From: Eledone cirrhosa
Taxonomy: Eukaryota
Length of the DNA: 64,000 nucleotides
NCBI GenBank assembly: GCA_964016885.1
Contig: OZ024745.1
Span: 73,656,001 to 73,720,000 of the forward strand
Direction of reading: 5' to 3'
The position numbers were made by a program, and so were the translations under genes. The notes beneath the pieces are model-generated. The model made no database searches, was not told the origin of the DNA, and saw only the letters and a list, made by a program, of their open reading frames with translations. Numbering within the stretch: the first letter of the stretch is position 1; each line of letters starts with the position of its first letter. Below are positions 21,563 to 53,970 of the stretch, in pieces.

Positions 21563-21670
21563 TTACTGTTGAACAAATGGATGGCGATAGCCATCAAAAC
21601 ACAGTATAGCTTAGTAAGGCCGTTTGCATACAAACGAATCGAATATTATTATTATTATTATTATTATTAT

Positions 21671-22984
21671 TTGAGTCTCAGTCATTGGTGTTAGTTAACT
21701 GGAAAGTTTGTTGAAATGAATATCAAGCCACTACCTGCAGCCTCAGATATTCAGGACGTATCGGAGGGTTCTTGCTGTTCCCAGCAAGCATGCCTTTTGA
21801 AGCGTTCCAAAAAGCGTGAAGGGGCCAATTTTCTTTAACAATCCCTGGAAACTTTTTGAGATAGTACCTAGTGCGCCTATGACAATCGGGACCACTTTGA
21901 CTTCATGGCAGTTCCAAATCCTTTTTACCTCCCACTTTAAGTCCTGGTATCGGTTAATTTTCTCCCTCTCCTTCACTTGCACTCTCGTGTCGAATGGGCA
22001 GGCCACATCCACAATCAGCCACGATCTTTTTTCTTTGTCCACAACCACCAGGTCAGGTCTATTGTGTTCCAGTCTCCTGTCCGTCTGTATCCTAAAATCC
22101 CACAGCACCTTCACCTGATCGTTTTCTATCACCGACTCTGACTTATGCTCATACCACTTCTCAGAATGTGGTAAATTTTTTACTTTGCATAGGTGCCAGT
22201 GGATCGCCCTGCCCATCACATCATGTCTCCAGCCCTTATAGTGAGTCTGGGCTAGGTGTTTACACTCGGATACAATGTGAGCCACAGTCTCCTCTCTCCA
22301 CAGATCCTGCACAGTGGGCTAGCCTCCTCCTTGTAAATATGGTGTTTCAACCACTTCGTTTTGAGGGCCTGCTCCTGCGCAGCCATTAACATTCCTTCTG
22401 TAGCCTTTTTAAGGTCTCCTCTTTTCAACCAGTTCCATGTTTGTGGATCTCTGAATTCAGTTTTCTCAAAGAAGGTACTATGAAGGGATTTTTCCTGAGG
22501 CTGCTCTTTCTCCTTGATGTTATTTCCTCCTTGGACATCCCCTGGTCTCTTGTCCCCTCCTTCAGTACAGTTCTGAGCATTGGCTCCTTACTATCAGTCA
22601 CGTATTTGTGTAGGTTGTTTTTCTCCATCTGAACACAGTCCCCTATGCTGATGTGACTTCTTCCACCTTCAGATCTCCTTAAGTAGAGTCTATCGACATC
22701 ACTCCTCGTGTGGAACATGTTGTAGATAGTCAATAGCTTCCTAGTCTTCCTATCCATTTCTTTTTGTTCAGCAACATTCCATCTCAGAATTCCCGCACTG
22801 TACCTAATAATAGACACAGCTCGGGAATTTACTGCACTTATGGCATTGCTACTGTTCAGATGTGACTTTAATACGCTGCTTAATCTCCGAATGTATTCAG
22901 TTCTTATCAATTCCTTCATTTTTTTGTTCTTGATGTCATCAGCCTCCAGAACACCCAAATACTTGTATCCTTCTTCAGTGTCAA
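21671..22984 (-). mobile_element. R4/Dong-type RLE LINE family A, 5'-truncated
   Basis: YKYLGVLEAD...HIVSEC...RHD...NRPDLVVVD...DVACPFD, with a frameshift. (TTA)n on both sides. Confidence 0.9.
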
Positions 22985-23035
22985 TTATTATTATTATTAT
23001 TACAGTATCGGTAATTATTATTATTATTATTATTA

Positions 23036-23210
23036 CAGTATCGGTAAGGGTCGGACGCCATGCTTTGAAGCATAGAGTTACCTCCCTTTATGATCTGAGT
23101 TCAAATCCCGCCGAGGTTAACTTTGCCTTTCATCCTTACGGGGTCGATAAAATAAAGTACCAGTAATGCACTGGAATAATTGCTGGCCTTGTGCCAAAAG
23201 TAGAAACAAT
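23036..23210 (+). mobile_element. SINE family S, slightly 5'-truncated, in (TTA)n
   Basis: B box, core and 3' end intact; ATT repeats on both sides. Confidence 0.9.
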
Positions 23211-23221
23211 TATTATTATTA

Positions 23222-25187
23222 CAGTTGCATTTATCTTGCTTTATGTTCATACGAGTTATCACCAAGTCACAGCCAGTGACCTCAAGAGACAACAAGGTCC
23301 GCCATGTTCAAGAAAGAACATACATACTCACACATGCATCTTTAGTGTTTAGACTTGTGATGTACTTATATTGACAGAATCTTCCTTAGTATATGGGCAG
23401 TTCCCATTAGTACTATCTTTTGTATTTCTCCTATACGCGTGTTTCCTGGGATTTGCGATAAGTAATCATTAGACCCCTTAGGTATCATTCCCAGAGCGCC
23501 TACAACCACTGGTATTGTTTTAGTTCTCAATTTCCACATTTTTCCAATTTCTATCTCCAGGTCCTTATACTTGCTCAATTTTTCAAATGTTTTTATAGAT
23601 ACATTCTTGTCTATTGGAACAGACATATCAATTAGCAGGCATACCCTCTTTTTAAACTCCTTCAATATTATATCAGGTCTATTTGCATCTATTTTTCGGT
23701 CTGTTTGGATGCTAAAGTTCCACAAGATTGAGATGTGATCTTTTTCAAGTATGGGAGGTGGTTGATGCTCCCACCAATTCTTTTGATGGGGCAGGTCAAA
23801 ATGCTTATACATTATCCAATGTATGTATTGTGCAGCTCTGTCATGCCTGTTTAGGTATTCGGTTGGAGCTATAGGACTGCACATTGAAATTATATGGTCA
23901 ATGGTCTCTGGTTGTTTTTTGCATACACGGCATAATGGGCTGCATCCATTTTTTATTATGTTGGCTTGGTAATTTTTTGTTGGCAGACACTGATCTTGTG
24001 CTGATATAATCAGTCCTTCAGTCCCCGATTTCAGTCCAGAGGATGCCAACCACTGATGGGTTAAAGTTTTGTCAACATCAGGATTGTTAGCTCGCTCTGG
24101 GTATTTTCCATACAGAGGCTTTTCTTGCCATTTCTTAGCCAGTTTCTGTAGCAGTTCTTTCTTTGCAGTTACTTTTACCTGCTTTGCTTTTTCTGTGTTT
24201 TCCATTTCAGCAGTAAATGGGACTTCTGAAATTTGTAGTCCATTACTGTATCTTTGTGCATCTTTTGTAATGGAATATGATCTTTTGATGCTTTCGTGTT
24301 TCAAAACGAGTTTGATCATCCAATCATGTGATTCCCTTAGATATGTAGATAATCCAATTGTTGCAGTTTTCAACGCAATGTCCAACTGGATTAACCCACG
24401 TCCTCCTTCTTTCCTAGGGAGATATATTCTATCTATATCTGCCTTAGGATGATGCATTCTGTGCATGGTTAAGAATTTTCTAATTTTTGTATCGAGCCTA
24501 CGGATCTCTGTGCTTGACCAGTTGATGACATTGTAACTGTAGGTTACTACTGGTATGGCAAGCGTGTTTATGGCATCGATCCTATTCCTTGCATTCAATT
24601 CCGTTCTTAAGATTGCTCTTACCCTACGGTAACATTCCTTCCTTATCCTTTCCCTCATTGTCGAGTGCTTGATTCCGTCTCCTTCCTCAAACACCTAGAT
24701 ATTTGTAAGTTTTTTCTTGATCAAGTTCTCTTATCACGTTCCCCCGATCAAGATTAATGTCTGAACTCTGGTGAACGTTGCTTTGGCGCATTTATCTAGT
24801 CCAAACTCCATTTTAATGTCATCACTGAACTGCTCCACAGTGGATAATAGCCCTTGCAATTGTTCATCATTTTTTGCAAATAGTTTCAGGTCATCCATGT
24901 AGAACAGGTGATTAATGGTTTTGTCATAGACTTTACATCCATGTTTTGTTTCCTTGAGCATTTTACTTAATGGTATAAGTGCGATGCAGAATAAAAGCGG
25001 TGATAAAGAGTCACCCTGAAAAATTCCACAATTAATATTAACTTCTCCAGCTTCCAGTGATTTTGTTTCACTATTCAAAAGGTGTGTCGTTTTCCATGTC
25101 TTCATACTGAATGACAAAAACCTCCTGACAACGGGGGATATTTTGAAAATCTCTAAACATTTTTCAATCCAACTGTGTGGCAAACTA
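23222..25187 (-). mobile_element. R4/Dong-type RLE LINE family B, 5'-truncated
   Basis: [47 protein letters not shown]...IDMSVP. Different 3' UTR from family A; (TTA)n flanks. Confidence 0.9.
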
Positions 25188-25430
25188 TTATTATTATTAT
25201 TATTATTATTATTGAATGCTATGGTTGACGGAGGCTCGGCTCTGTAAGGTACTGTAAATTTTGAACGCTATAACAATTGTAAATTGTTTAAAACTTAGAC
25301 CAACTTGTAGACAAAAACACCCTCCTCCTCGTGAGAGGGGTCTTTCTGCCCGTTATTTGGCCTTTCGGGGTTAAATAACTGCTTATTGGGGTTTCGTACC
25401 CAATATTTATTTTAAACAAAAAACAACAAC

Positions 25431-27504
25431 ATGGCTACGAACAAGAATTTGCATAGGTCACTCCCACTCATTCCGTCTTCTTCTTCCTCAATCATCACTA
25501 CAGCAGAGAGAAGATTGTCTCTCTCCCTCCCTTCTCTTTCGCAAGCGACGAAAGAAAAGAAAAGTCTCGTGCAAAGCGTGCAAGGTTTCTCCACGACGAC
25601 GACGACAACGACGAAACAGGTGTGCGGGAAATACGAAAACCCATTTCATTCGTCTGACGTCAGGAATAATAGCAGTAGCAGCCGTAATAACAACAGCAAC
25701 AGTGACAATGAAAACAACAGTAGCAGCCGCAACAGCATCACCAGCAGCATAAACAACAACAGCATTAGCAGCAGCAACACCAACAACAACCACAGCAACA
25801 GCGGCGGAGGCAGTAGTCGTAGTACCTGCAGCAACAACAAAAGTAACAGCAGCTCTGACGACAACAACAACAACAACAGCAGCAAAGAAAAACCAATCTC
25901 ATTTGCAGGTATTGCGAAAAACTTGGAAACAATCCTCATAACAAATGATGAATTAGAGGAAGCGAAGAAGATGGTGACAAAGAATGGACACCGAGCAATC
26001 TGCAAGGCAGCGGAAACATTTTTCGAAACCCAACAGCACTGTACGGTCACGTACCGTACAGTAAGTACAAAATCCCGTAGGGTGGAAAGAGCCACAGAGG
26101 CCCAAATACAAAAAGCCTTGGGGTCTGTGTGGCAGCGGAAAACGCACATCACCCGAGGCAAAAAATATTCCACCATAGACGTACTTTTTGCCACACCCCA
26201 GGAGGCAAAGGCCCAATCCGTAGTGACCCTAAGGAGCCAGGAAATGGTGTTGGTGCCCTCCTACTGCGGGCAAAAAATTGTGAGGGTCAAACTGACCCAC
26301 GTCCCCCCCCGGAATGGCCCCTTCTTGGCTGGCCGCGACTGTCCTCGTCGGAATCGAGGACAAAACAACTGTACTGCAAGTACAGAAAAAAGTAAGAGAA
26401 GATTGGGTCGGCACCTCCATTGAGATGCTAATCTAAACCAACCAGGAGTGCATCGAAGCTATCCCGGATGTGATAGACTTCGATAACAGCACTCAACTGC
26501 CCATAAGTGTTGAGGGCAAACGCCCGAAATGCTTTCGCTGTGGATCGAAGACTCACCTCAGGGCCTTCTGCAACGAGAAGACCCTGAGAAAGGAGAAAAC
26601 CCCCCTCCTTCCGAAACCGGCTCCACGGCTACCAGCAACAGGACAAGCGGCAACCAGGAACGATAGGTCCGTGGCACCCATACCCACGCCACGGAAATCA
26701 AAAACAGCAGCAGCAGTGGAAATATTGACAACAACAACAGCAATACCAAATGCAGCTGCAACAGAGACTCCAGTGCAAACATCACCAACAACAACAAGTG
26801 AAAGAGTGGAGCTGGTACCCCTCCCCGACCTCACAGAATCAGACATCGAGTGTGAGGTGGGAGAGGGATGGCAAAAGGTCGCAAGAAGGCACAAACGCAG
26901 AAGCAGCGCATCGTCGCCTTTGAAAAGGGAGGAAAGAAATTAGAAAAGGGTAAAGTCTACTGCAAAGAGACCCACAGCAGCAACACCACCAACACCATCA
27001 CCACCCACACTAGCACCACCATCACCACCGGCGACAACCCCACCGCCAACAACACCTTCAACACCACAAGCACCAACATCGCAAACACAACAACAAAACA
27101 CACACACCCAGCAACAACGACAAGAAAATAGCAGAACCACACCCCACCCCCAGAAAAACAAATGCACGGCAATAAACACACACAACAAGAAACTAATGAC
27201 TTACATAATTGAACACACAGACATTTCACAACAGGACTACATAATACCAGCACCAATCAAAACGCCAACTAACATAAGACTGCTAAAAATAGCACAGAAA
27301 CAATACACAAACATTAAAACGAAATTCCCCAACGCAGTTGGTGATTTCAGGGACCTAGGAGGAACCATCAATCGAAGAGTATATTCAGACATTCTCTTAG
27401 AAGAGCCGACGACCAGCCGAAGGGACGATTCAACGGTCCCTTCACCAGACGATCAAGTGAAAAGGGATGTAAAAACCATCCCTCCTCTACCAAAAGTACG
27501 GTAA
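25431..27504 (+). pseudogene. Tx1-type ORF1 (gag-like, zinc knuckle), disrupted
   Basis: CFRCGSKTHLRAFC (CX2CX4HX4C) and low-complexity N/S/T tracts; stops and frameshifts; colinear with 51599-53695. Confidence 0.8.
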
Positions 27505-27539
27505 GTGGTCTTTCCCATCTTTTCCACTCTATTTTAAAC

Positions 27540-29758
27540 ATGACCTCACTCAGAATAGGCAGCATAAATGCGCGTGGCTTGGGGTCGTCATGGAAGCAGG
27601 GTCACCTGCTCAACAACCTCAGGTCACTAAACATAGATGTAGTGGCCATCAGCGAGACCAGAATCTCCGAAGCACGGGCCTTCGCACCGATCTTCGGCGG
27701 CTACGATGTGTACGCATCTCCCAGCCGTCCTGGATCGGGTGGAGGAGTTGCTGTGCTTTTTCGGAGAGGTTTGGATCTCGCCATACGGGCCATCTTCCTG
27801 GACCCAGAGGGTAAGCTGGTGGTGCTGGATGTGACCAGCGGAGACGGGCAAGCTTTCAGGCTAGTGGCCGTCTATGCCCCGACAGGAGCAGGGCGGCCTG
27901 ATTTCTTCCGGCGTCTGGAGACCTTTCTTGGAACGTCCCGCTCTTTAGTGTTAGTGGGCGACTGGAACGGGATCTTAGATGCACGCTGGGACTGTGTGGG
28001 ATTAGCGGATAGGGGTGGAGGGTGCAAGAGCCTCACCAACCTGCTCAGGCGTTTTGAACTGTCTGACAGGTACCGATTGGATTTCCCGAATGTGCCAATG
28101 TGGACTTGGACAAACCGCATAGGGTCATCCAGATCATATCTAGATAGAGTATTTTGTAGGGAAATAGATAGGTCTAGCATAGGCTGTCCACAATTCAAGA
28201 TAGTCAGCTACACGGACCACAAATTCGTGACCTGTGTGCTTGACTTAGATAGGCTTCATAGACGAGGACCCGGCTACTGGAAGCTAAACGCGTCCTTACC
28301 AGCGCGCAAGGCCTACAGAGACCGGATTAGCGAACTAGTTAAGCGGGCGTTGACGGGGGCCATCGTCAACAACAAGTGGTGGTTTGCTCTGAAAAGAGCG
28401 ATTAGAATAGAATCGATTAGGTTTAGTAAGGCTTTAGCAATAGAGAAAAATAGAGCAGAGGGAGAACTAGTTAGAAAATTAGACGAGGCGCTTAGCAAAG
28501 GCATTGCGACCGACGTGCTTGCGGCGAAATTGGCCCTTGACCAATTCTTCAATGCAAAGCACGAAGGCTGCGTTGTCAGAGCTAGGGTGCGTGCTCTCAG
28601 ACACGAGGGGACGAAAGCCGTTCAATGGGCCCGAGTGGCGGAGGCGCGTCATGGCAACAAAGCCACGATCCGGTCTTTGGTAGACCACGACGGGCGCATG
28701 CTACTCGATCCCGGGCAAATGTGTGAAGCTTTTCAGCGACACTTCGCTCAGCTGTTCGGGGGCAGCGGGGGGCCGGGTAGAGGGATGGACTTTAGTGTCT
28801 ACCTCGACGGACTGCCGCGGCTCTCGGCCACTGAGGCGAGGTGTTGCGGTCCATCTGTTGTCAACACCCGCTACGTGGAGGGCTGGGCATGCCGTGGCTG
28901 ATGATGCGCAGGCAGGCGCTCAGGCTACGACATCTCCACCTCTTCCTCGACGGTGATCAGGTGTGGTCGCCGTTTGCTAGACGCGTTTTTCCCCAGCTCG
29001 TTTCCTTGACGGAGCTGCAGTCCTGGGTCAAGCGAAGACCGAGAGGGAGCGCCTGGAGACTGGAATGTCTTCAGGCGCTCACAGCCCTCGACCAATCGGG
29101 CAATGTGATCGGTGGAAACTCCACCTCGGCGTTCTATAGAGGATTAGTGGAGGGGAAGAGCGACGACGTACTTGGGGAAACTCTAGGCGTCGACGAAAAT
29201 CAACTAGCCAATCTCTTCGGAAGAACTTTCGGGCCAGGGCCTATGGACAACTTCCAGAAATCTCTGGCCTGGCAGTGCTACCGAGGAGCCTTGCCAGTTC
29301 GGGATAAACTCTACAGGCATGGAGGTGCCGTCAGCCGGGCATGTCCGAGATGCGCGCAGGGCGACGAAACCGTCCTGCACGCACTCGTCCAGTGTCCGAA
29401 AATTGCTGACTTGTGGGTTTATGTCGAACACCTGCTGTCGCGTTTAGGACGGATCCGGCTATCATCTGAGTCCATCGTGAGGATTGCCCCGCCCTCCTCC
29501 TTTAGCCGGGAAGGGCAGGCAGTTTTTATCTGCCTGGTGGCCATGGCGAAAGAGATAGTATGGTGGACACGTTTGAAAGGGCTGAAGACGAGTACTTACC
29601 TCTTCGGTGATGCTCTGATTGACTTTTTCAAATTTCATTTGAAAAGGAAAATCAGAGTAGAGAGGGAAGTGCTCTCTTCCCAGCATTTTGTTGAAAGATG
29701 GGTGAGAGAAGCAAGAATGGCCCGAGTGAATGGGCCTACTCTGAGTATATATCTGTAA
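27540..29758 (+). pseudogene. Tx1-type ORF2: APE endonuclease + C-terminal zinc finger, RT missing
   Basis: SINARGL, ISET, VYAP, VGDWN, SYLDR, TDH, GYWKLN; the sequence jumps at 28846-28848 to the post-RT region GGLGMP. Confidence 0.88.
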
Positions 29759-30121
29759 ATTAAAGGTGGAAAACTGGGAGAGGGCACTTGCCTTGGTGGT
29801 CAGGGTCATTGTGGCTTTTTACTGGGCTTTCCCCACAAATGTCCCTCCGAAGTCTCCCCCCTATTCGGGAATTTTTCATTGTTATTTTCATTGTTATTTT
29901 TGTTACATCCTCTGTTTTGGTTTTTTTACACGCAGAAATGCCCATTTGTACCGTCCTGCATTGTCCTGCACTGTCCTTAATGTCTACTTTATGTAAACCC
30001 TTGTGGTTAATAAAGAAATCATTATTATTATTATTGTTATTGTTATTCCTTGAATCTCAGTCATTGATGTTGGTTAACTGGAAAGTCCGTTGGATTGAAT
30101 ATCAAGCCACTACCTGCAGCC

Positions 30122-33100
30122 TCAGATATTCAGGACGTATCGGAGGGTTCTTGCCGTTCCAAGCAAGCATGCCTTTTGAAGCGTTCCAAAAAGCGTGAAG
30201 GGGCCGATTTTCTTTAACCATCCCTGGAAACCTTTGGAGATAGTCCCCAGTGCTCCTATGACAATCGGGATCACTTTGACTTCATGGCAGTTCCAAATCC
30301 TTTTCACCTCCCACTTTAGGTCCTGGTATCGGTTAATTTTCTCCCTCTCCTTCTCTTGCACTCTCGTGTCGAACGGGCAGGCCACATCCACAATCAGGCA
30401 CGATCTTTTTTCTTTGTCCACAACCACCAGGTCAGGTCTATTGTGTTCCAGTTTTTTGTCCGTCTGTATCCTAAAATCCCACAGCACCTTCACCTGACTG
30501 TTCTCCATCACCGCCTCTGGCCTATGCTCATACCATTTCTCAGAATGTGGTAGATTGTTTACTTTGCACAGGTGCCAGTGGATCACCCTGCCCATCACAT
30601 CGTGTCTCCAGCCCTTATAGTGGGTCTGGGCTAGGTGTTTACACTCGGACACAATGTGAGCCACAGTCTCCTCTCTCTCTCCACAGATCCTGCACAGTGG
30701 GCTAGCCTCCTCCTTGTAGATATGGTGCTTCAACCACTTCGTTTTGAGGGCCTGCTCCTGCGCAGCCATTAGCATTCCTTCTGTAGCCTTTTTGAGGTCT
30801 CCTCTTCTCAACCAGTTCCATGTCTGTGGATCTCTAAATTCAGTTTTCTCAAAGAAGGTACTATGAAGGGATTTTCCCTTAAGGCTGCTCTTCCTCCTTG
30901 ATGTTATTTCCTCCTTGGGTATCCCCTGGCCTACTGTCCCCTCCTTCAGTACAGCTCTGAGCATTGGCTCCTTACTATAGGTCACGTATTTGTATAGGTT
31001 GTTTTTCTCCATCTGAACACAGTCCTCTATGCTGATAAGACCTCTTCCACCCTCAGATCTCCTTAGGTAGAGTCTATCGACATCACTCCTCTTGTGGAAC
31101 ATGTTGTAGATAGTCAATAGCTTCCTAGTCTTCCTATCCATTTCTTTTTGTTCAGCAACATTCCATCTCAGGATTCCCGCACTGTACCTAATAATAGACA
31201 CAGCTCGGGAATTTACTGCGCTTATGGCATTTCTGCTGTTCAGATGTGACTTCAATACGCACCTTACTCTCCGAATGTATTCAGTTCTTAACAATTCCTT
31301 CATTTTTTTGTTCTTTATGCCATCAGCCTCCAGAACGCCCAAATACTTGTATCCTTCCTCAGAGTCAATTTCCTTTATCATCTCACCTGTTGGTATCTGG
31401 ATCCCGTTACTTCTGCTCAACCTACCCCTCCTCATCACAATGACTCCACATTTACCAATACCAAACTGCATACATATATCACTGCTGAAAATACGGACAG
31501 TGTCAACAAGCACATCCAACTCCTTCTCACTTTTCCCGAAGAGCTTAAGATCGTCCATGAAGAGGAGGTGATTGATGGTAAGCTCTCCCCTTCCCAACTT
31601 GTATCCTGCTCTCACTTTTCGCAGCATAATGGTCAAGGGCATCAGGGCAAGGACAAACAACAGAGGGGACAGGCTATCTCCCTGGAAGATACCTCTCTTG
31701 ATCTTCACGCTTCCCAAGGATACTCCAGTTGATGTCAACTCTGTCTCCCAGGACCCCATACTCCTGCCCAGCAACTGTCTGATGTTATCTGCCACCCTGA
31801 AGATCTCCAGGCTTTTGGTGATCCAGGAATGAGGCACCATGTCAAATGCCTTTCTGTAGTCTATCCATCCCATGGCAAGATCAGTGTGCCTCCTCCTGCA
31901 ATTCCCCATTACCATCTTATCAATAAGCAACTGGTCCTTTGTACCACGTGACTTCTTTCGGCATCCTTTCTGTTCGTCCGGCAACAAGTTGTTTGTGTGG
32001 AGGTGATGGTAGATTTCCTCAGACACAATGCTCGTCAACAGTTTCCACATTACGGGCAGACATGTGATAGGTCTATAGTTGGTGACATCATTACCCTTGA
32101 TTCGGTCTTTCATTATCAGAACTGTGGTACCTTTTGTCAACCACTCTGGCACCTCACCCGACACCAAGCAGTCATTGAACATGGCCGTCAGCTTCGGGTG
32201 GAGGGATGTTAAATGTTTAATCCAATACCCCTGCACACCATCTGGGCCTGGTGATTTCCAGTTGGTTAGTTTTTTGGCTTGCCCCTTAAGAGTTTCAACT
32301 GTGATACTCAAATCAGTCTGTTGCTGTGCCTGCTCACCGATCTCCCTCTGTACTGTCTCAATCCACCCCGCCTGGGCATTGTGTCTAACATCCTGCTCCC
32401 ATATTCCTCTCCAGAATGTTTTAGCTTGTTCCGCCCCAGGGATCAAGTCGTTGCCTCTTTCTTTCCCCTCAAGCTGTCCAAACAGCATCTTCTGGTTGTT
32501 GTCGAACATGCGGTTCTGTTTATACTGACTGACTCTGTTCTCGTATCGCCTGATTTTGGCACTCTTTGCTACAATGCGTTGCTTCAATTCCTCTATGATA
32601 ATATTTAGCTTTTTACTCCTAGTTTTGTATTTTATTTACAGTCTATTTTTAGTGCCTATGTTTTTTAGTGTCCCATTCAGTAGTGACTCAAGCTTTCCTA
32701 TGTCATTTCTCATTTCCCCGATTTGACCACTCAGTCGCTTCCTCCACCACGGCTCTGCTCTTTCTTGTCTGTTGTTTCCTCTCGCTTTTATACCAAGTAG
32801 TTTCCTCACCGTATTTGCTGTTGCTTTGAGGATATTGTTGCACTGGTGAAGACTCCTCGCCTCAAGGTATGGGATGACTTTGTTTACCTTAGCTGTTGTT
32901 TCTTTTAACTTTTTCCTGTCTACAAATCTTAGGTTCATAGGTCTCCCACTATCATTGTTCAACTCATCTACCACTAAATTTAGGATGTCAACCGAATCTT
33001 GTCCTAGCCCGTCAGCATTCATCCCCTCAGTGGCCGTATCTCTGTTCCAGGTATTATTTATCTCAGTATTCAGATCATTGTCTGCTTCGGGTGGTTCCTC

Positions 33101-34730: not shown

Positions 34731-34902
34731 TTATAACAATATATTTTGGGTCCGAATTTTTTTGGGGCTCAAGCCGGGTGCTTTACGTAGCATTTGTACT
34801 AAGAGTTGTTATTTCACAAATGATTTAAATATGTTAAAAATTCAAAACTTACGGGAGCGATTTCATGACCTCCGTCACCTCGTGCGTCTTCTTCCCTTAT
34901 TC

Positions 34903-34962
<60 letters not shown>

Positions 34963-35221: not shown

Positions 35222-35256
<35 letters not shown>

Positions 35257-35258
<2 letters not shown>

Positions 35259-35444: not shown

Positions 35445-35445
35445 T

Positions 35446-39005: not shown

Positions 39006-39018
39006 CAATAATAATAAT

Positions 39019-42000: not shown

Positions 42001-43768
42001 CTAGCTTTCTGACTAGCTCTCCTTCTACTCTATTTTCCTCTATCACTACTCCTTTGCTAAACTTAATCGACTCTACTTTAATTGCCTTTTTCAGGGCGAA
42101 CCACCACCTGTTGTTGACGACCGCTCCCGTCAACGCCCGCTTAACTAATGCGCTAATCCGGTCTCTGTAGGTTTTGCCCGCCGGGAAAGACGCGTTCAGC
42201 TTCCAGTAACCAGGCCCTTGTCTATGAAGTCTGTCTATGTCGATCTCACAGATCACAAATTTGTGGTCTGTGTAGTCGACTATTTTAAATTGTGGTCAAC
42301 TTATACTAGCCTTATCTAGTTCTCTGCAGAATACCCTATCGAGATACGATCTGGATGACCCGATACGGTTTGTCCATGTCTACATTGGCACATTCGGGTG
42401 ATCCAGTCGATACCTGTCAGACAGTTCAAAACGCCTGAGCAGGTTGGTGAGGCTCTTGCACCCTCCTCCCCTATCCACTAGCCCCACACAATCCCAGCGT
42501 GCATCCAAGATACCGTTCCAGTCGCCCACTAACACTAAAGAGCGGAACGTTCCAAGAAAGGTCTCTAGACGTCTGAAGAAATCTGGCCGTCCTGCCCCTG
42601 TTGGGGCGTAGACGGCTACTAGCCTGAAAGCATTGCCTTCGCTGCCGGTCACGTCCAGCACCATCGACTTACCTTCTGGGTCTAGGAAGATGGCCCGTAT
42701 GGCGAGATCCAAGCCTCTCCGAAAAAGGACGGCAACCCCTCCCCCGATCCTGGACGGCTGGGAGATGCGTATACATCGTAGCAGCCGAAGATCGGTGCGA
42801 AGGCTTGTGCTTCGGAGATTCTGGTCTCACTGATGGCCACCACATCTATGTTTAGTGACCTGAGGTTGTTGAGCATGTGACCCTGCTTCCAAGATAACCC
42901 CAGGCCACGTGCATTTATACTGCCTATTCTGAGTACGGCCATGTTGGATGAGAAACGAGGCAAGTGAGAAAGGGTCACTTACCTTGATCGGGTGGTGAAG
43001 GGACAGTAGAACCGCCCCTTTCGCTGGTCATGGGTGTTTCCAAGAGGATGTCAGTGTATCTCCTCTTGGTAACCAACCCTCTGAAGTCTCCAAATGCGTT
43101 GGGGAATTTTTGTTTTAAAGGTTTGTAGTGTTCTATTGAGATTTCAATGATGCTTATGTTGGAGAGTTCTTGGTGTTGGTGGGGTGTAGTAGTTTTTTTC
43201 TGTGATGTCTGTGTGCTGCTTTATATATTGCATGAGTTCTTTTTTTGCCATGTTTATGGCTGTGTACTTTTTGGGGGAGGGGTGATTTTGTTGCTGTTTT
43301 CTTCTTGTTGCTGTCTGGTGTGAGTGTCTTGTTGTGTTTGCGTTGTTGGTGTTTTTGGTGATGCTGGTGGTGGTGTGGTTGTTGTTGTCAGTGGTGCTTG
43401 TGGTGGTGATGGTGGTGGTGTTGCTGCAAGTTTCCTTGCTGCCTTTACCCCTCTTTGTATGCCTTCGCTTTTGGAGGGTGAATCTAAGGGTTTTTATGTT
43501 TTTTGTTTTTTGTGACAGACCGTTTGCCACTTCACTCTCGCCTCAAACTCCATGTCGGCTTCTGTGGCGTCTGGGAGGGGTATGTGCTCCACGGATGTTG
43601 GTGGTGGTAGTGGAGCCCTCTTCAGCAATTTTGTTACTGGTGTAGCTACTTCATATGTAGCTATTGGTGTTTCCGCCACTGATAATGCTGCTTTAGTTGT
43701 CCGTGGCCTTTAGTTGACCCACTGAGATAACATTTTGGCTGTCTTCCTTCTACACTTATAGGGAGTTG
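39019..43768 (-). mobile_element. Tx1-type LINE T2 (diverged subfamily), 5'-truncated in ORF1, disrupted
   Basis: APE (42380-42978), RT FRPITLLN, DQSKAFD, SVRQGC, AYADD (40333-41700), CPRC..H..C; 3' end CTTGTGGCCAATAAAGAAATC-ATT. Confidence 0.9.
39141..39330 (+). mobile_element. SINE family S inserted in the T2 3' UTR
   Basis: Full SINE; ATATAAGAAA duplicated at 39131-39140 and 39333-39342. Confidence 0.9.
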
Positions 43769-43769
43769 C

Positions 43770-46700
43770 CTCAGCAAGCGACAACGCATCACATTACAGC
43801 ATAGGGCCCCAGTATTTAATATTAAATTTTGGATCAGAAATGATATAGTTGAAAATGAGAAAATGGCTAAGTGGACAGACAGGCAAATCATTTCACCACC
43901 AACACCACCACCGCCACCATCACCACTACCACCACTACCACGCCAAAAACTCTGGTCAAGTTGCCTCAACTTCTATTTCAACTTCAACTTCAACACCATC
44001 ACTACAGTACTACGATCACATCACCACCACCACTACCTCATTATCGCTACCGCCGCTATTCTCTCCCACTACCTCCTGCTAAGTACTACTAGCACATCAC
44101 CACCACCACCACCACCACTGCCTCATTATCGCTACCGCCGCTATTCTTTCCCACTATCTCCTGCTAAGACAGGCATCGTAGTTTTCCCACTAAATGAGGA
44201 AGGCATCAAAAGATATAAATAGACTGATTTGATGACCCGGTCAAAAAATAAAAAAATAAAAATTCAAAATCAAAACAGCACAGCAGCAACGAAAAACGTA
44301 AAGAAAAGAAAAAAGAAAAGAAAAACAAACAGACAGACAGACAAGCAAAAAAAAAAACTAAGTCAGACATTCAAACATTACATTACAAAGAAACTTATGC
44401 GGATTTTTGGGGGTTTTTACCTATTTGTTTGTTTGTTTATTTATGTTCGTCTACAGCGTGATAGTGCCACGCTAAAATCACTGAGGGTGATCAAATCACC
44501 GGAGGTGATGAAATCACCGGTGGTTATGTAACCATACATTCACCAATCCTCGATAAGAGTGTTTCAATGTCGAACCTAAACAGTTCGAATAACGGTGAAG
44601 TGGAGACTGGAATGCCATGTGACAGACTCTCACCCTGCAGGTGCTTACTGGCTCAGCAGCAGGGACCTGGCTGTCAACCAAATACTGCTGGTGTCGGAGG
44701 AAGAAGAAGAAGGAAAGGGACCAGAACCAACTGGACGAAAGAATTGAATAGAACTGTTATGCAATGTTACCTGAAAAGTAACCCCAAGGAAAAAGGCTAT
44801 AGGAAACGGATGCATAACATCTGGAACGAGATTGGCCTATTTAAATTACATGAACAAAAATTGGCCGGGCAGGCTCGAGTAATAAGAACTAATGGGTGGA
44901 TAAGCGAGCTGGAACTGGAGGAACTGAGCAGAGAGATTAGGTTGGAAATGGAGAGTGGAGTATGCCAGGCAAATGAGCCAGTGGGAAATAAAGGTGAAGA
45001 AGTTGAGAGAACGGAGGAAGCATCCGAAGCAGACAATGATCTGAATGCTGAAATAAATAATACCTGGAACAAAGATACGGCCATTGAGGAGATGAATGCT
45101 GACGGGCTAGCACAAGATTTGGTTGATATCCTAAACTTAGTGGTAGATGAAATGAAAAATGATAGTGGAAAACCTATGAACCTAAGATTTGTAGACAGGA
45201 AAAAGTTAAAAGAAACAACAGCTAAGGTAAACAAAGTCATCCCATACCTTGAGGCGAGGAGCCTCCACCAGTGCAACAATATCCTCAAAGCAACAGCAAA
45301 TGCGGTGAGGAAATTACTTGGCATAAAAGCGAGAGGAAACAACAAACAAGAAAGATCAGAACCTTGGTGGAAGAAACGACTGAATGGTCAAATCAGGGAA
45401 ATGAGAAATGACATTGGAAAGCTTGAGTCCCTACTGAATGGGAAACTACAAAACATAGACACTAAAAATAGACTGGAAATAAAGTACAAAACTAGGAGGA
45501 AAAGCTAAATATTATCATAGAGGAACTAAAGCAACGGATTGTAGCAAAGAGTGCAAAAATTAGGCGATACGAGAGCAGAGTCAGTCAGTATAGACAGAAC
45601 CGCATGTTTGACAACAGCCAGAAGATGTTGTTTGGACAGCTTGAAGGAAAAGAAAGAGGCAGAACAAACTAAGACATTCTGGATAGGAATATAGGAGCAG
45701 GATGTTAAATATAATGACCAGGCAGTGTGGATTGAGACAGTACAAAAGGAGATTAGTGAACAGGCACACCAACAAACTGATTTGAGTATCACAGTTGAAA
45801 CTCTTAAGGGGCAGGCCAAAAAACTAACCAACTGGAAATCACCAGGCCCAGATGGTTTGCAGGGGTATTGGATTAAAATTATAACATCACTCCACCCGAA
45901 ACTGACAACCATGTTCAATGACTGCTTGATGTCAGGTGATGTACCAGAGTGATTGACAAAAGGTACCACAGTTCTGGTAATGAAAGACCGAATCAAGGGT
46001 AATGATGTTACCAACTATAGACCTATCACATGTCTGTCCGTAATGTGGAAACTGTTGACAAGCATTATGTCTGAGGAAATCTACCATCACCTCCACACAA
46101 ACAACTTGTTACCGGACGAACAGAAAGGATGCCGAAAGAAGTCCCGTGGTACAAAGGACCAGTTACTTATTGATAAGATAGTAATGAGGAATTGCAAGAG
46201 GAGACACACTGGTCTTGCCATGGGATGGATAGACTACAAAAAGGCATTTGACATGGTACCTCATTCTTGGATCACCAAATGTCTAGAGAACTTCAGGGTG
46301 GCAGATAATATCAGACAGTTGTTGAGCAAAAGTATGAAGTCCTGGAAAACAGAGTTAACATCAGCTGGAAAATCCTTGGGAGGCGTGAAGATCAAGAGAG
46401 GTATCTTCCAGGGAGATAGTCTGTCCCCTCTTTTGTTTGTCCTTGCCCTGAATACATTCGGAGAGTAAGGAGCGTATTAAAGTCACATCTGAACAGTAGG
46501 AATGCCATAAGTGCAGTAAATTCCCGAGCTGTGTCTATTATTAGGTACAGTGCGGGAATTCTGAGATGGAATGTTGCTGAACAAAAAGAAATGGATAGGA
46601 AGACTAGGAATCTATTGACTATCTACAACATGTTCCACAAGAGGAGTGATGTCGATAGATTCTACTTAAGGAGATCTGAAGGTGGAAGAGGTCTTATCAG

Positions 46701-47680
46701 CATAGAGGACTATGTTCAGATGGAAAAATATAACCTACACAAATACGTGACTGATAGTAAAGAGCCAATGCTCAGAATTGTACTCAAGGAGAGGACAATA
46801 GACCAGGGGATATCCAAGGAGGAAATAACAACAAGGAGAAAGAGCAGCCTTCATGAAAAATCCCTTCATAGTACCTTCTTTGAGAAAACTGAATTCAGAG
46901 ATCCACAGACATGGAACTGGTTGAAAAGAGGAGACCTTAAAAAGGCTACAGAAGGAATGCTAATGGCTGCGCAAGAGCAGGCCCTCAAAGCGAAGTGGCT
47001 GAAACACCATATTTACGAGGAGGAGGCTAGCCCACTGTGCAGGATCTGTGGAGAGAGAGAGGAGACTGTGGCTCACATTGTATCCGAGTGTAAACACCTA
47101 GCCCAGACTCACTATAAAGGCTGGAGACATGATGTGATGGGCAGGGTGATCCACTGGCACCTATGCAAAGTGAACAATTTACCACATTCTGAGAAGTGGT
47201 ATGAGCATAAGCCAGAGTCGGTGATAGAAAACGATCAGGTGAAGGTGCTGTGGGATTTTAGGATACAGACGGACAAGAAACTGGAACACAATAGACCAGA
47301 CCTGGTGGTTTTGGACAAGGAAAAAAGATCGTGCCTGATTGTAGATGTGGCCTGCCCATTCGACACGAGAGTGCAAGAGAAGGAGAAAATTAACCGATAC
47401 CAGGACTTAAAGTGGGAGGTAAAAAGGATTTGGAACTGCCTTGAAGTGAAAGTGGTCCTGATTGTCATAGGCGCACTAGGTACTATTTCAAAAAGTTTCC
47501 AGGGATGGTTAAAGAAAATTGGCCCCGCGCCGCTTTTGGGAACACTTAAAAAGGCATGCTTGTGGGAACAGCAAGAACCCTCCGATACGTCCTGAATATC
47601 AGAGGCTGCAGGTAGTGGCTTGATATTCATTTCAACAAACTTTGCAGTTAACTAACATCAATGACTGAGACTCAAAGAAC
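43770..47680 (+). mobile_element. R4/Dong-type LINE family A with an internal RT deletion
   Basis: ORF starts MSNLNSS at 44567; several disablements; the FMDD region is lost at 46448-46451. Confidence 0.92.
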
Positions 47681-47689
47681 AATAATGAT

Positions 47690-47876
47690 AATTGTTTCTA
47701 CTTTAGGCACAAGGCCAGCAATTACTCAGTACATTACTGGTACTTTATTTTATCGACCCCGTAAGGATGAAAGGCAAAGTTTATCTCGGCGGGATTTGAA
47801 CTCAGAATGGCAAGGGTCGTAACTCTATGGGTCAAAGCATGGCGTCCAACCTTCTACCGATACTGCCAATCCACCA
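47690..47876 (-). mobile_element. SINE family S
   Basis: Reverse complement of the SINE, between AAT tracts. Confidence 0.88.
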
Positions 47877-47917
47877 CAATAATAATAATAATATTAATAA
47901 TAATAATAATAATAATA

Positions 47918-47983
47918 ATTGTTTCTACTTTAGGCACAAGGCCAGCAATCACCCAGTGCATTACTGGTACTTTATTTTATCGA
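47918..47983 (-). mobile_element. SINE family S 3' fragment fused to the T3 3' end
   Basis: Minus strand TCGATAAAATAAAGTACCAG...TAGAAACAATT directly follows the Tx1 AATAAAGAAA plus 3 nt. Confidence 0.85.
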
Positions 47984-47986
47984 TAC

Positions 47987-50900
47987 TTTCTTTATTAACC
48001 ACAATGGTTTACATAAATTAGACATTAAGGACAGTACAGGACAATACAGGACGGTATAAATGGGCATTTCTGCGTGTAAAAAACAAAAACAGAGGATGTA
48101 ACAAAAAAGAACAATGAAAAAATTCCCAAATAGGGGGGAGACATCCGAGGGACATTTGTGGAGAAAGACCATTAAAAAGCCACAGTGACCCTGACCACCA
48201 GGGCAAGTGCCCTCTCCCAGTTTTCCACCATAATTTACAGACAGATACTCAGACTAGGCCCATTCACTCGGGCCATTTTTGCTTCTCTCACCCATCTTTC
48301 AACAAAATGCTGGGAAGAGAGCACCTCCCTCTCTACCCTGATTTTCCTTTTCAAATGAAATTTGAAAAAGTTAATCAGGGCATCACCGAAGAGGTAAGTG
48401 CTCGTCTTCAGCCCTTTCAAATGTGTCCACCATATTATGTCTTTCGCCATGGCTACCAGACAGATAAAAATTGCCTGCCCTTCCCGGCTAAAAGAGAAGG
48501 GGAGGGGGGCAATCCTCACGATGGACTCAGCTGATAGCAGGTGTTCGACATAAACCCACAAGTCAGCAATGCTCGGACATTGGACGAGTGCCTGCAAGAC
48601 GGTTTCGTCGCCCTGCGCGCATCTCGGACATGCCCAGCTGACGGCACCTCCATGCCTGTAGAGGTTATCCCGAACTGGCACACCTCCTCGGTAGCACTGA
48701 GTAGCCAGGGATTTCTGGAAGTTGTCCATAGGCCCCGGCCCGAAAGTTCTTCCGAAGAGATTGGCTAGTTGATTTTCGTCGACGTCTAGAGTTTTCCCAA
48801 GTACGTCGTCACACTTCCTCTCCACTAATCCTCTATAGAACGCCGAGATGGAGTTTCTACCGATCACATTGCCGGATTGGTCGAGGGCTGTGAGCGCCTG
48901 AAGACATTCCAGTCTCCAAGCGCTCCCTTTCGGTCTTCGCTTGACCCAGGACTGCAGCTCCGTCAAGGAGACGAGCTGGGGAAAGACGTGTCTAGCAAAC
49001 GGCAACCACACCTGATCACCGTCGAGGAAGAGGTGGAGATGTCGTAGCCTGAGCGCGTGCCTGCGCATCATCAGCCACGGCATGTCCAGCCCTCCACGTA
49101 CCGGGTGTTGACAGCAGATGGACCGCCTGACCATCGGAGCGCGTCCCTTCCACAAAAAGCGAAAGAGCAAACGCTCCAGCACAGTCAGGCGGGGCTTAGG
49201 ACAAGGTACGACGGTCAGGCGGTAGTAGATGACGGACGTGATGTACGCGTTAGCCACCTCCGCTCGACCTTTCAGGGATAGCTCCCTCTCGGCCCATTTC
49301 TGGGTGAGAGAAGCCACCCTGCTCGTCACCTCGTCCCAGTTTTTGTCCGACGACCGCTGTTGGACGGCATGGACCTGCCTCTCCAGGTGCCGAGCTGCAG
49401 GCCCACTGACTTTTCCTGGTTGATCATTGCTCCTGTCACTGCTTTGTATTCTCTTAGTGTAGTACCGATCGCCTCGATGTGTTTGGCGTTCGACACCACT
49501 ACGGTGACATCGTCCGCATATGCTGACACGGATCTTCCGCATCCTAGTTCGCGCGGGACCCCCCTCAACGTCTCCAGTTTGTGCAGTAATGGCTCGAGAG
49601 TCAATACGTACAAGAGGGACGAGAGGGGACATCCTTGGCGAACCGAGCGCATGATGTTGAACGGTTCCGAAAGGTGACCGTTCACTCTCACCAGAGAGCA
49701 GATGTCGCTGTGCATGGCAGCGATCCAGCCTCTGAAGACAGGACCAAAGCCAGCCGCCCTCAGGACTGCCGCTAGGTAACGATGGTCGACCCTATCGAAA
49801 GCTTTCGACTGATCTAAATTGATCAAGGACCCACCCGTGCCAGGTTCCCTAGCTACCCTCTCTACGATGTATCGCATGAGGTGGAGGTTGTCGTGGATGG
49901 ATCAGTCGGGAATGGCGCATGTCTGAGCCTCTCCCACCACCAGACCACCAACGACAAGCACGAACCTCTTTGCTAGAACCTTGTCCAAAATCTTGAACTC
50001 TGTGTTTAGCAGAATTATGGGCCGGTAATTATCTATGTTATCCCCCTTGTTCGGACCCTTTCTCAGCAGCGACACCGCTCCTCGGCTCACACAGCTGGGA
50101 ATTCTCCCGTTCTGTTGCCAGTTACAGTAGACGTCCGCCTAGAGGCCTCCGAACAAGTCTGGAATATGTACGTAAAGTTCATAGGGTAGACCATCCAAAA
50201 CCAGGCGATTTAACCCTTGTGCAACCAGTCATTGCCTCCCGTACTTCAGCGGCTGTTATCATATTTTCGCAACACTCCGCCTCAGTCGCTGAGAGCCGCG
50301 GCACTCCGTCGAGGTAGACACTAAGTCCATCCCTCGATCTGGCCCGCCGCTGCCCCCGAACAACTGTGCGAAGTGTCGCTGAAAAGCTTCACACATTTTC
50401 CCGGGATCGAGTAACATGCACCCGTCGTGGTCCACCAAAACCGTATCGTGGCTTTGTTGCCACGACGCGCCTCCGCCACTCGGGCCCATTGAATGGCTTT
50501 CGTCCCCTCGTGTCTGAGAGCACGCCCCCTACCTCTGACAACGCAACCTTCGTGCTTTGCATTGAAGAATTGGTCAAGGGCCAATTTCGCCGCAAGTACG
50601 TCGGTCGCGATGCCTTTGCGAAGCGCCTCGTCTAATTTTTTAACTAGTTCTCCCTCTGCTCTATTTTTCTCTATAGCTAAAGCCTTACTAAGCCTAATGG
50701 ACTCTATTATAATCGCTCTTTTCAGAGCAAACCACCACTTGTTGTTGACGATGGCCCCGTCAACGCTCACTTAACTAGTTCGCTAATCCTGTCTCTGTAG
50801 GTCTTGCACGCTGGTAAGGACGCGTTTAGCTTCCAGTAGCCGGGTCCTCGTCTATGAAGCCTATCTAAGTCAAGCACACAGATCACGAATTTGTGGTCCA

Positions 50901-53900
50901 TGTAGCTGAATTGTGGACAGCCTATACTAGACCTATCTATTTCCCTACAAAATACTCTATCTAGATATGATCTGGATCACCCGATGCGGTTTGTCCAAGT
51001 CTATATTGGCACATTCGGGAAATCCAATCGGTACCTGTCAGACAGTTCAAAACGCCTGAGCAGATTGGTGAGGCTCTTGCACCCTCCTCCCATATCCGCT
51101 AATCCCACACAGTCCCAGCGTGCATCTAAGATCCTGTTCCAGTCGCCCACTAACACTAAAGGGCGGGACGTTCCTAGAAAGGTCTCCAGACGCCGGAAGA
51201 AATCAGGCCGCCCTGCTCCTGTCGGGGCATAGACGGCCACTAGCCTGAAAGCTTGCCCGTCTCCGCTGGTCACGTCCGGCACCACCAACTTACCTTCTGG
51301 GTCCAGGAAGATGGCCCGTATGGCGAGATCCAAACCTCTCCGAAAAAGCACAGCAACTCCACCCCCTGATCCAGGACTGCTGGGAGATGCGTACACATCG
51401 TAGCCGCCGAAGATCGGTGCGAAGGCCCGTGCTTCGGAGATTCTGGTCTCGCTGATGGCCACTACATCTATGTTTAGTGACCTGAGGTCGTTGAGCAGGT
51501 GGCCCTGCTTCCATGCCAACCCCAAGCCACGCGCATTTATGCTGCCTATTCTGAGTGAGGTCATGTTGAAATGGAGTGGAAAAGATGGGAAAGACCACTT
51601 ACCTTACTTCTCGTAGAGGAAGGATGGTTTCTCCATTCCTTTTCACTTGATCGTCTGGTGAAGGGACCATTGAATTCTCCCTTCGGCTGATCATCGGCTC
51701 TTCTGTGAGTATATCCCAATATACTCTCCGGTTGAGTGTCCCTCCCAGATCTCTGAAATCACCAACCGCGTTGGGGAATTTCGTTTTAATGTTTGTGTAT
51801 TGTTTCTGTGCTATTCTTACCAGTCTTATGTTCGTTGGTGTTTTGATTGGTGCTGGTATTGTGTTGTCGTGTTGTGAAATGTCTGTGTGTTCAATTATGT
51901 AAGTCATTAGTTTCTTGTTGTGTGTATTTATTGCTCTGCATTTGTTTTTCTGGGGGTGCGGGGTGGTTCTGCTATTTTCTTGTCGTTGTTGCTGGGTGTG
52001 TTTGTTTTGTTGTTGTGTTTGCGATGTTGGTGCTTGTGGTGGTGGTGTTGAAGGTGTTGTTGTTGTTTGCGGTGGGGTTGCCGCCGGTGGTGATGGTGGT
52101 GCTAGTGTGGGTGGTGATGGTGTTGGTGGTGTTGCTGCTGTTGGTCTCTTTGCAGTAGCCTTTACCCTTTTTTCATTTCTTTCCTCCCTTTTCGAAGGCG
52201 ACGATGCGTTGCTTCTGCGTTTGTGCCTTCTTGCGACCTTTTGCCATCCCTCTCCCACCTCACACTCCATGTCCGATTCTGTGAGGTCGGGGAGGGGTAC
52301 CAGGTCCACTCTTCCACTTGTTCTTGTTGGTGATGTTTGCAGTGGAGTCTCTGTTGCAGCTGCAGTTGATATTAGTGTTGTGGTTGTTAATACTCCCACT
52401 ACTGCTGCTGTTCTTGATTTTCGTGGCGTGGGTATGGGTGCCACGGACCTATCCTTCCTGCTTGCCGCTTGTCCTGTTGCTGGTAGCAGTGAGCCGGTTT
52501 CGGAAGGAGGGGGGTTTTCTCCTTTCTCAGGGTCTTCTCATTGCAGAAGGCTCTGAGGTGAGTTTTCGATCCACAGCGAAAGCATTTCGGCCGTTTGCCC
52601 GCAACACTTATGGGCAGTTGAGTGTCTATCACATCCGGGATAGCTTCGTTATCGAAGTCTATCACATCCGTTATCGAAGTTTATCACATCCGGGATAGCT
52701 TCGATGCACTTCTGGTTGGTTTAGATTAACATCTCAATGGAGGTGCCGACCCAATCTTCTCGTACTTTTTTCTGTACTTGCAGTTAAGTTGTTTTGTCCT
52801 CGATTCCGACGAGGACAGACACGGCCTAACAAGAAGAGGCCATCCGGGGGGGGACGTGGGTCAGTTTGACCCTCACAATTTTTTGCCCGCAGTAGGAGGG
52901 CACCAACACCATTTCCTCTAAGGATTGAGCCTTTGCCTCCTGGGGTGTGGCAAAAAGCACGTCCACGGTAGCATATTTCTTGCCTCGGGTGATATGCGTT
53001 TTCAGCTGCCACACAGACCCTAAGGCTTTTTGTATTTGAGCCTTTGTCGCTCTTTCAACCCTACGTGATTTTGTGCTTACTGTACGGTACGTGACCGTAC
53101 AGTGCTGTTGGGTTTCGAAAAAATTTTCGGCTGCCTTTCAGATTGCTCGGTGTCCGGTTTTCGTCACCATCTTCTTTGCTTCCTGTAATTCCTCATTTGT
53201 TATAAGGATGGTTTCCAGGTTCTTTGCGATACCTGCAAACGAGATTGGTTTTTCTTTCTTGTTGTCGTTGTCGTCAGAGCTGCTGTTACTTTTGTTGTTG
53301 CTGCTGGTACTACGACCGCCGCCGCCGCTGTTGCTGTTGTAGTTGTTGTTTTTGTTGCTGCTGTTGTTGCTGTTGCTGCTGCTGCTGTTATTACGGCTGC
53401 TACTGCTATTCTTCATGACGTCAGACGAATGAAATGGCTTTCCGTATTTACCGCACACATTTCTCGTTGTTGTCGTCGTCCTGGAGAAATGTTCCACGGT
53501 ATGCATGTGCTCTTGGTGAAAGCTATCAGAAACTATATTTTTCTTTTCCTTTAATGGCGTCACTTGCGAAAGAGGCGACACCACATTTAGAGAAGGGATG
53601 GAGAGAGACAATCTTCTCTCTGATGTAGTGACGATTGAGGAAGAAGAAGACGGAAAGAGTATGAGTGACTTGTGAAAATTCTTTTTTGTAGCCATGATTT
53701 TTTTGGTTTAAAATGAATATTAGGCACAAAACCCCAACAAGCGGTTATTTAACCCCGAAGGTCCAAATAACGGGCAGAAAGACCCCTCTGACGAGGAGGA
53801 GAGTGTTTTTATCTACAATTTGGTTAAAGTTTTAAACAATTTACAATTGTTATAGCGCTTTAAAATTACTATACCTTACAGAGCCGAGCCTCCGTCAACC

Positions 53901-53909
53901 ATGGCATTC

Positions 53910-53910
<1 letters not shown>
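47987..53910 (-). mobile_element. Tx1-type LINE T3, full length (~5.9 kb), disrupted
   Basis: ORF1 53695-51599 and ORF2 51564-48235 (APE, RT QGCPLS/YADD, zinc finger). 5' end TGAATGCCATGGTTGACGGAGG lies next to the (AAT)n tract. Confidence 0.92.

Positions 53911-53970
<60 letters not shown>

Follow-up and report, generated by a model that had tools for sequence, protein, structure and literature searches.

Microsatellite targeting by long interspersed nuclear elements (LINEs) is already known, as is the use of one target by two LINEs. The microsatellite targets published for the Tx1 group are TC, TTC, TTCC and TTTC (PMC4494074), and in the available sections of one review (PMC3812793) Dong alone is listed as targeting TAA. 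That review files Dong under the elements with an apurinic/apyrimidinic-like endonuclease (APE), and PMC3774820 has it in the R4 lineage, for which a 5′ ribozyme is described. How sites are chosen during microsatellite insertion is ‘not well understood’ according to the same review (PMC3812793). Here we analyse a 64,000-nucleotide stretch of the Eledone cirrhosa genome (contig OZ024745.1; C5:73656001-73720000 in our numbering), referred to as the window, in which Tx1-type APE LINEs, Dong-type LINEs with a restriction-like endonuclease (RLE) as well as short interspersed nuclear elements (SINEs) lie stacked among TAA repeats.

Our interpretation, which we consider probable, is that the window carries two back-to-back stacks in which one (ATT)n/(AAT)n microsatellite hosts Tx1-type APE LINEs in one orientation and Dong-type RLE LINEs in the opposite one. 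The likely reason is priming on different strands, and each insertion probably leaves the repeat flanking it on either side for a further copy to use. Directly seen are the orientation rule, the tract on both sides of full-length copies, the lack of poly(A) and the mixture of ages and families within one stack.

Self-comparison, translations and Pfam matches resolve positions 21646-53968 into 13 pieces, comprising five RLE LINEs (four DongA copies and one DongB), three APE LINEs (two Tx1A copies and a single copy of Tx1G, a more distant family) and five SINE pieces. A first-pass annotation of the same DNA had given this count correctly and had placed all of the copies in a single 32-kb nest. 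There are instead two nests, separated by a 263-bp non-element spacer (34960-35222) across which the polarity of the tracts reverses. In the left nest (21646-34959, 13.3 kb) the tracts read TTA on the plus strand, the Dong copies lie on the minus strand, and the Tx1 and SINE copies lie on the plus strand. The right nest (35225-53968, 18.7 kb) is its mirror image, with TAA on the plus strand, Dong copies on plus, and Tx1 and SINE copies on minus. A tract of at least three units is present at 10 of the 16 junctions and a degenerate one at another (47677-47691), which sustains in part the annotated claim that short TAA tracts mostly separate the copies. Because just four TAA/TTA tracts of at least three units are found in the approximately 32 kb of the window outside the nests, the nest pattern is far beyond chance. 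The annotation had also assigned (AAT)n sense-strand ends to Dong and (ATT)n ends to Tx1 and SINE copies; this is true wherever a tract abuts, and a SINE at 39141-39326 breaks the rule. Every LINE copy in the window is truncated, deleted or stop-bearing. The long copies are 77-94% identical to one another and have differing break points, and as none exceeds about 95% identity, the stack was built by separate insertions without duplication.

Across the 3.0-Gb genome, 2,373 of 2,459 full-length Tx1A 5′ ends (96.5%) fall directly after ATTATTATT ((ATT)3) in a single phase, and a 5′ (ATT)n junction is present in 30 of the 30 best-scoring loci (one of which is the window's own copy) and in 30 of 30 loci taken in order of position. 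As full-length 5′ ends might carry the repeat themselves, we also took the first 80 of the 6,984 Tx1A 3′ ends, all from contig C1, and located the 5′ junction of each. A script scored 49 of these copies as full, 48 of which have a tract, and 31 as truncated, with a tract at 12 and a reversed one at 1. After correction by hand, an upstream tract is present at 53 of the 54 copies whose 5′ end is intact and at 11 of the 25 that are truly 5′-truncated, the cut points of the latter being many and different; the background rate under the same rule is 1.2-1.5%. This position-ordered count supersedes an earlier, more lenient tally in which, of 11 truncated copies, 8 had a clear tract, 1 had a weak one and 2 lacked it. 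A subfamily with an unrelated 5′ half has the identical ATT|G junction.

On the 3′ side, for which the 80-copy sample stands in for a genome-wide count, at least three pure ATT units follow 48 of 54 full and 18 of 25 truncated copies. Some copies (13 of 79) have only 0-2 units, and a long 3′ tract is therefore not an obligatory tail. Poly(A) was found at 0 of the 80 Tx1A 3′ ends. A published measure of target specificity is that more than 20% of flanks be of one type (PMC4494074), a value that both the full-length and the truncated copies exceed. The association of a Tx1-type family with (ATT)n on its 5′ flank is well supported throughout the genome, as is the view that ATT is more than a tail. 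The convergence of an APE LINE and an RLE LINE on one microsatellite, which the first-pass annotation proposed, holds genome-wide, and the random Tx1 5′ flanks that it named as contrary evidence were looked for and are not what we see (2,373/2,459 and 11/25, against about 1.4% in the background). Regeneration of the tract by insertion requires that full-length Tx1A copies be flanked on both sides, as they are (53/54 at the 5′ side, 48/54 at the 3′ side). For the proposed TAA-specific Tx1 endonuclease the case is weaker than had been stated: a 5′ tract is present at just 11 of the 25 truncated copies, too few to show strict specificity.

The RLE elements encode a single open reading frame (ORF) whose translations contain reverse transcriptase (RT) followed by CCHC and PD-(D/E)xK endonuclease motifs. 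Their best solved-structure matches are R2 proteins, and there is a second match that covers the nuclease motif. These elements fit Dong, a label that we assign from their architecture and TAA target. Of 30 DongA 5′ ends, 28 have (AAT)3 no more than 15 nt away and not one has (ATT)3. A search of the Dong 5′ end for a ribozyme like that of hepatitis delta virus gave no Rfam match at E<=1, and our own descriptor, run without a positive control, was also negative. With regard to orientation, every Dong 5′-facing end that abuts a tract of at least four units does so on AAT (94/94), and the corresponding ends abut ATT in 146 of 147 Tx1 and 44 of 44 SINE copies; at 3′ ends abutting such tracts the rule is obeyed by 84 of 86 Dong, 137 of 139 Tx1 and 50 of 51 SINE copies. 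These counts derive from fetched loci that were chosen via such elements, and hence show direction and not frequency. Random orientation within TAA tracts, another observation that would have spoken against the annotation, was sought and is not seen.

Two further observations were made at these loci. At some loci far from one another (L307/L322/L347, L036/L335 and L324/L330), a Dong break point or an upstream pair of SINEs is held in common; this could be due to short Dong forms that are non-autonomous, to hot spots of microhomology or to 5′ flanks carried along. Another repeat family with an ATT tail (L043, L177, L209, L216, L319 and L321) is often the immediate upstream neighbour of a Tx1 or SINE copy, and it may seed tracts.

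On the basis of its sequence relationships, the APE LINE is Tx1 in the broad sense. Copies in the window match the Pfam families Exo_endo_phos, RVT_1 and zf-RVT. The element has an ORF1 with a CCHC knuckle, and its ORF2 is intact (1,139 aa) in the genomic copy L034. With phmmer, ORF2 scores 308 bits against Xenopus Tx1L (YTX2_XENLA) and 173-174 bits against human L1 ORF2p, and the nearest named relative of the RT is from Argonauta hians (72%). In a FastTree phylogeny of 67 RTs, which includes few named references and no mammalian L1, the octopod clade (support 1.0) joins vertebrate Tx1 at 0.885 and falls outside the clade that contains Xenopus Tx1L (0.988). Tx1A, Tx1G and a 5′-swapped Tx1A subfamily form one RT clade (0.93). 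In this subfamily, represented by L283 and about 30 other loci among L279-L358, an unrelated 5′ untranslated region (UTR) and ORF1 precede the same ORF2 from approximately reference position 2256. The Tx1-type family is young and has thousands of full-length copies and intact ORF2s.

The SINE is a non-coding element of 186 bp with 142,156 3′ ends in the genome. A B-box-like word is visible by eye in the SINE head, and no Rfam tRNA match was obtained. (ATT)3 follows 18,046 of the 142,156 ends, about 2-6 times the tract share of ATTAT words (1.9-5.5% in three small background sets). Duplications of 8-20 bp were found at 20 of 30 unselected copies, and 19 of these 20 start with ATTAT. By eye, a 5′ tract is present at 0 of 30 young full-length copies. 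Among ATT-tailed copies the tract is on the 5′ side as well in 14 of 20, also by eye, which indicates that these copies landed in tracts. The proposal that the SINE is a third TAA-anchored class therefore fails, and we rejected a tract-specific SINE because most ends lie outside tracts and the ATTAT word with its duplications marks the site instead. A Tx1-type protein is the likely helper of the SINE, as judged from the shared target word and orientation. In the young SINE lineage nearest the 39141 copy (L112-L140), duplications of 8-20 bp are found at 22 of 30 copies and begin with AGTAT in 17 of 22; none of the 20 duplications of unselected SINEs does so. Yet of the 142,156 SINE ends, just 973 continue with AGTAT. 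Thirty SINEs chosen only by an AGTAT end are mixed, with a duplication in 7 of 30 and no diagnostic column relative to unselected copies. At L216, a 45-bp SINE head fragment forms a tandem array of at least 12 units.

The window locus is not very special for this genome. On contig C1, a 32.2-kb stack of a single polarity (55423451-55455645, L361-L363) holds five full-length Tx1A copies, and a 41-kb stack (55510312-55551576) contains a polarity flip, so the region is not exceptional in size. Runs of three to five same-strand full-length copies at 6-kb spacing also occur. In addition, sister Tx1-type LINEs with the same 3′ signal are stacked in (ATCT)n, which lies on both of their sides (L376:520-6436 and L377:300-6900, at C5:73.72-73.74 Mb). 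This sister family adjoins the right side of the window, and its identity to the ATT family is 60% for the endonuclease and 72% for the RT.

In target-primed reverse transcription, the AAT-reading strand serves as primer for an RNA with terminal AUU units and the ATT-reading strand for one with terminal UAA units, from which we infer nicks on opposite strands for Tx1 and Dong. The Tx1 protein would nick the AAT-reading strand at an ATAAT word, after which a few terminal AUU units of the Tx1 RNA could pair with the freed 3′ end, and tracts would be preferred as dense arrays of this word. For Dong the same scheme would run in mirror image, starting from the strand that reads ATT. The SINE, which likely borrows the Tx1-type protein, would need just one ATTAT word, and so would enter tracts in the Tx1 orientation yet mostly land elsewhere. 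An insertion within a tract would leave tract on both sides, creating two new targets, so that stacks would lengthen, for the most part through one insertion after another and at times through tandem duplication. Such growth would explain the LINE stacks of 13-41 kb that recur in the genome, and is relevant to assembly and repeat annotation. Endonuclease preference and RNA pairing probably both contribute to the choice of site; published domain swaps (PMC1919474) favour the former, and the gap between full-length and truncated copies together with the SINE word shift favour the latter.

Several observations weigh against this scheme. At five of the 16 junctions in the window (35446, 39140, 39327, 43768 and 47984) there is no tract. 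Six of the 31 script-called truncations had to be reassigned by hand as internal rearrangements, five of them intact 5′ ends with tract and one unresolved and dropped. A 5′ tract is missing from 14 of the 25 truncated copies, of which six have a short ATTAT-type word (two being one tandem duplicate), two lie next to (CTT)n, five have nothing upstream and one has a reverse (AAT) tract. The difference in 5′ tract between full and truncated copies is strong (p 4.5e-8), and part of the full-length figure may therefore stem from repeat carried on the RNA. The 3′ likeness between the SINE and Tx1, a 20-nt match with 15 identities, is weak when taken alone (shuffle p 0.02 for Tx1A and 0.04 for Tx1G, with 0.10 for DongB). 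No empty allele was visible in public sequencing runs from the same or a related organism over 20300-35400, where repeat contigs flooded the result, or over 34880-35280, where one read-derived contig crosses the spacer and ends inside a tract, so that these two comparisons say nothing either way. Finally, the 32-kb stack on C1 includes a duplicated Tx1+DongB unit in which the DongB piece is identical at 812 of 812 positions, so tandem duplication also lengthens stacks and insertion is not their only route of growth.

Which component selects the site can be viewed in two other ways. A strictly (TAA)n-specific Tx1 endonuclease acting alone, with missing tracts put down to target deletion or later loss, is a serious contender that we nevertheless lean against. 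The single phase of 96.5% of full-length 5′ ends is as expected from such an enzyme, the specificity is common to Tx1A, the 5′-swapped subfamily and Tx1G, and three of the five truncations with nothing upstream abut broken Dong copies; however, the truncated copies L297, L313 and L314 sit, like SINEs, at a lone ATTAT word with a tract on neither side. Conversely, the target could be set by the RNA. A loosely specific APE would nick AT-rich sites, and only nicks that pair with the RNA tail would be extended; the tail would be read through from the donor tract, full-length RNAs may carry upstream repeat that guides the 5′ joint, and the target would be inherited along with the tail. This alternative, which seems to us possible and rather doubtful, is compatible with the growth of stacks set out above and differs only in what picks the site. 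It would account for the AGTAT duplications of the 39141-type SINEs, for the far commoner 5′ tracts of full-length copies, and for a sister family that shares the 3′ signal and yet has (ATCT)n as its tail and target. Each of the SINE and sister-family arguments has its counterpart, as the AGTAT lineage could use a different helper LINE, SINEs with an AGTAT end are mixed, and the ATT and ATCT endonucleases diverge more than the RTs. Moreover, in published swaps between TRAS1 and SART1 the site follows the endonuclease, and the Tx1L endonuclease is sequence-specific (PMC1919474). More speculatively still, the landing site in this octopod Tx1-type system might be inherited through the RNA tail, such that a one-base change from ATTAT to AGTAT in a SINE lineage, or read-through of ATCT in place of ATT in sister LINEs, retargets the element; we consider this unlikely. 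If true, an APE LINE could switch microsatellites before its endonuclease changes, while sharing tracts antiparallel with an RLE LINE. Together, the ATT family, its (ATCT)n sister and the shifted-word SINE lend themselves naturally to the question of what chooses the site, the endonuclease or RNA-DNA pairing.

It is improbable that stacks grow mostly through unequal crossing-over or tandem duplication on repeated elements, with targeting serving only to start them. The identical Tx1+DongB unit on C1 and the same-strand runs at 6-kb spacing are what this process would produce, but all 13 pieces in the window differ in family, break points and sequence, and we rejected tandem duplication as the origin of the window stack on these grounds. 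Least credible, to the point of being very improbable, is that ATT simply belongs to the element, as its tail or as part of its 5′ end, and that copies insert at random and accumulate passively. More than half of the truncated copies do lack a 5′ tract, as this idea predicts; against it, 11 of 25 truncated copies with unrelated break points have one, both subfamilies with unrelated 5′ halves have one, and the orientation rule holds for 146 of 147 Tx1 ends. Enrichment at truncated copies refutes the tail-only idea unless those tracts are untemplated additions.

The left nest opens with a (TTA)8 tract (21646-21669), followed by a minus-strand DongA copy that is 5′-truncated and keeps its 3′ 1.3 kb (21670-22983). 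An (ATT) tract interrupted by a duplicated 11-bp SINE fragment (22984-23035) leads to a plus-strand tRNA-type SINE with slight 5′ truncation (23036-23209), then (ATT)4-5, and to a minus-strand copy of the second RLE family, DongB, 5′-truncated within the RT (23222-25186). A (TTA)8 tract (25188-25213) reaches from the DongB 5′ break to the 5′ end of a plus-strand Tx1A copy (25214-30021). This copy has an intact 5′ end, ORF1 with its CCHC knuckle, the APE domain and zf-RVT; an internal deletion at 28848 removed the RT, and the copy ends with an AATAAA signal and an ATT tract. A full-length minus-strand DongA copy (30047-34897), with one in-frame stop near 32636 and a 337-bp internal duplication in its 5′ region, is followed by the (TTA)19 tract (34903-34959) at the nest's right edge. 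A short inverted repeat (21638-21645 and 34958-34966) bounds the left nest, as if the nest had opened within a 12-bp palindrome with an ATATT core.

Beyond the spacer, the right nest begins with a (TAA)11 tract (35225-35257) and a full-length minus-strand SINE (35258-35446) whose 5′ end sits directly on a 5′-truncated plus-strand DongA copy (35447-39004). A (TAA)3 tail tract (39009-39017) is common to this DongA copy and to a minus-strand, 5′-truncated copy of the second APE family, Tx1G (39018-43767), which has 77-80% DNA identity to Tx1A. Within the Tx1G 3′ UTR lies the plus-strand SINE at 39141-39326, antiparallel, with its own duplication of about 17 bp and outside any tract. Head-to-head with Tx1G, with no tract between, is a plus-strand DongA copy (43769-47676) that lacks its 5′ end and has an internal deletion at 46450. 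Two minus-strand SINEs, one near full length (47690-47875) and one a 3′ fragment (47919-47983), lie on the sides of an interrupted (AAT) tract (47878-47918). The fragment is fused directly to the 3′ end of a full-length minus-strand Tx1A copy with broken ORFs (47984-53909), and an (AAT)20 tract (53910-53970) at the 5′ end of this copy, adjoining (GTA)19, forms the right edge.

Elsewhere in the window, a broken RT element on the minus strand (7775-9153) gives a weak RVT_1 match and, from the look of its C-terminus, is presumably Penelope-like. Two self-inverted elements of about 400 bp, at 21164-21562 (80 bp left of the nest) and 61051-61411, are likely miniature inverted-repeat transposable elements, and positions 56370-57639 comprise a tandem duplication of 655 bp with 99.8% identity. 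Among the 77 of 163 open frames of at least 62 aa outside the nests that were scanned for host genes, only two sub-threshold, low-complexity Pfam matches were obtained.

L1-Tx1 and Dong-R4 elements are both reported to be abundant in Octopus, and O. vulgaris has 13 and 5 recently active families of them, respectively (PMC13282606, PMC8967140). Target sites are absent from the available Octopus passages; the main text of PMC13282606 does not use the word ‘target’ at all, and that of PMC8967140 uses it a single time, in a generic sense. The literature searched, which did not extend to Repbase, Dfam, subscription journals or the supplement and Fig. 3 target lists of PMC4494074, yielded no ATT-targeting Tx1, and (ATT)n is apparently a new target for this group. 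The Dong-type elements differ in nothing essential from Dong, DongAg and DongBg of the R4 lineage, which have the same single ORF with RT, then CCHC and PD-(D/E)xK motifs, and sense-strand (TAA)n flanks (PMC3812793, PMC3774820), except that here the tracts are shared with an APE LINE. Kibi in (TC)n, Koshi in (TTC)n and the crocodilian Tx1 elements in (TTCC)n or (TTTC)n are likewise microsatellite-specific APE LINEs of the L1/Tx1 group (PMC4494074, PMC3812793), whereas the octopod elements use (ATT)n and, in the case of the sister family, (ATCT)n. As the octopod clade lies outside the vertebrate Tx1 clade in the RT tree, its microsatellite target was probably gained separately.

Pairs of LINEs that share a target provide the remaining comparisons. 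TRAS1 and SART1 reportedly lie in opposite orientations in the Bombyx telomeric repeat. They too are two LINE families in one simple repeat (PMC1919474), but both are R1-clade APE elements at telomeres, whereas the elements described here are one RLE and one APE LINE in thousands of interstitial tracts. The same convergence of an APE and an RLE LINE on one target is seen for Keno (a Tx1 element) and Utopia in the multicopy U2 small nuclear RNA genes (PMC4494074, PMC4640811) and for R1 and R2 in 28S ribosomal DNA (PMC1919474, PMC3774820). In those systems the targets are genes, whereas here the target is a microsatellite that is left on both sides of the insert.

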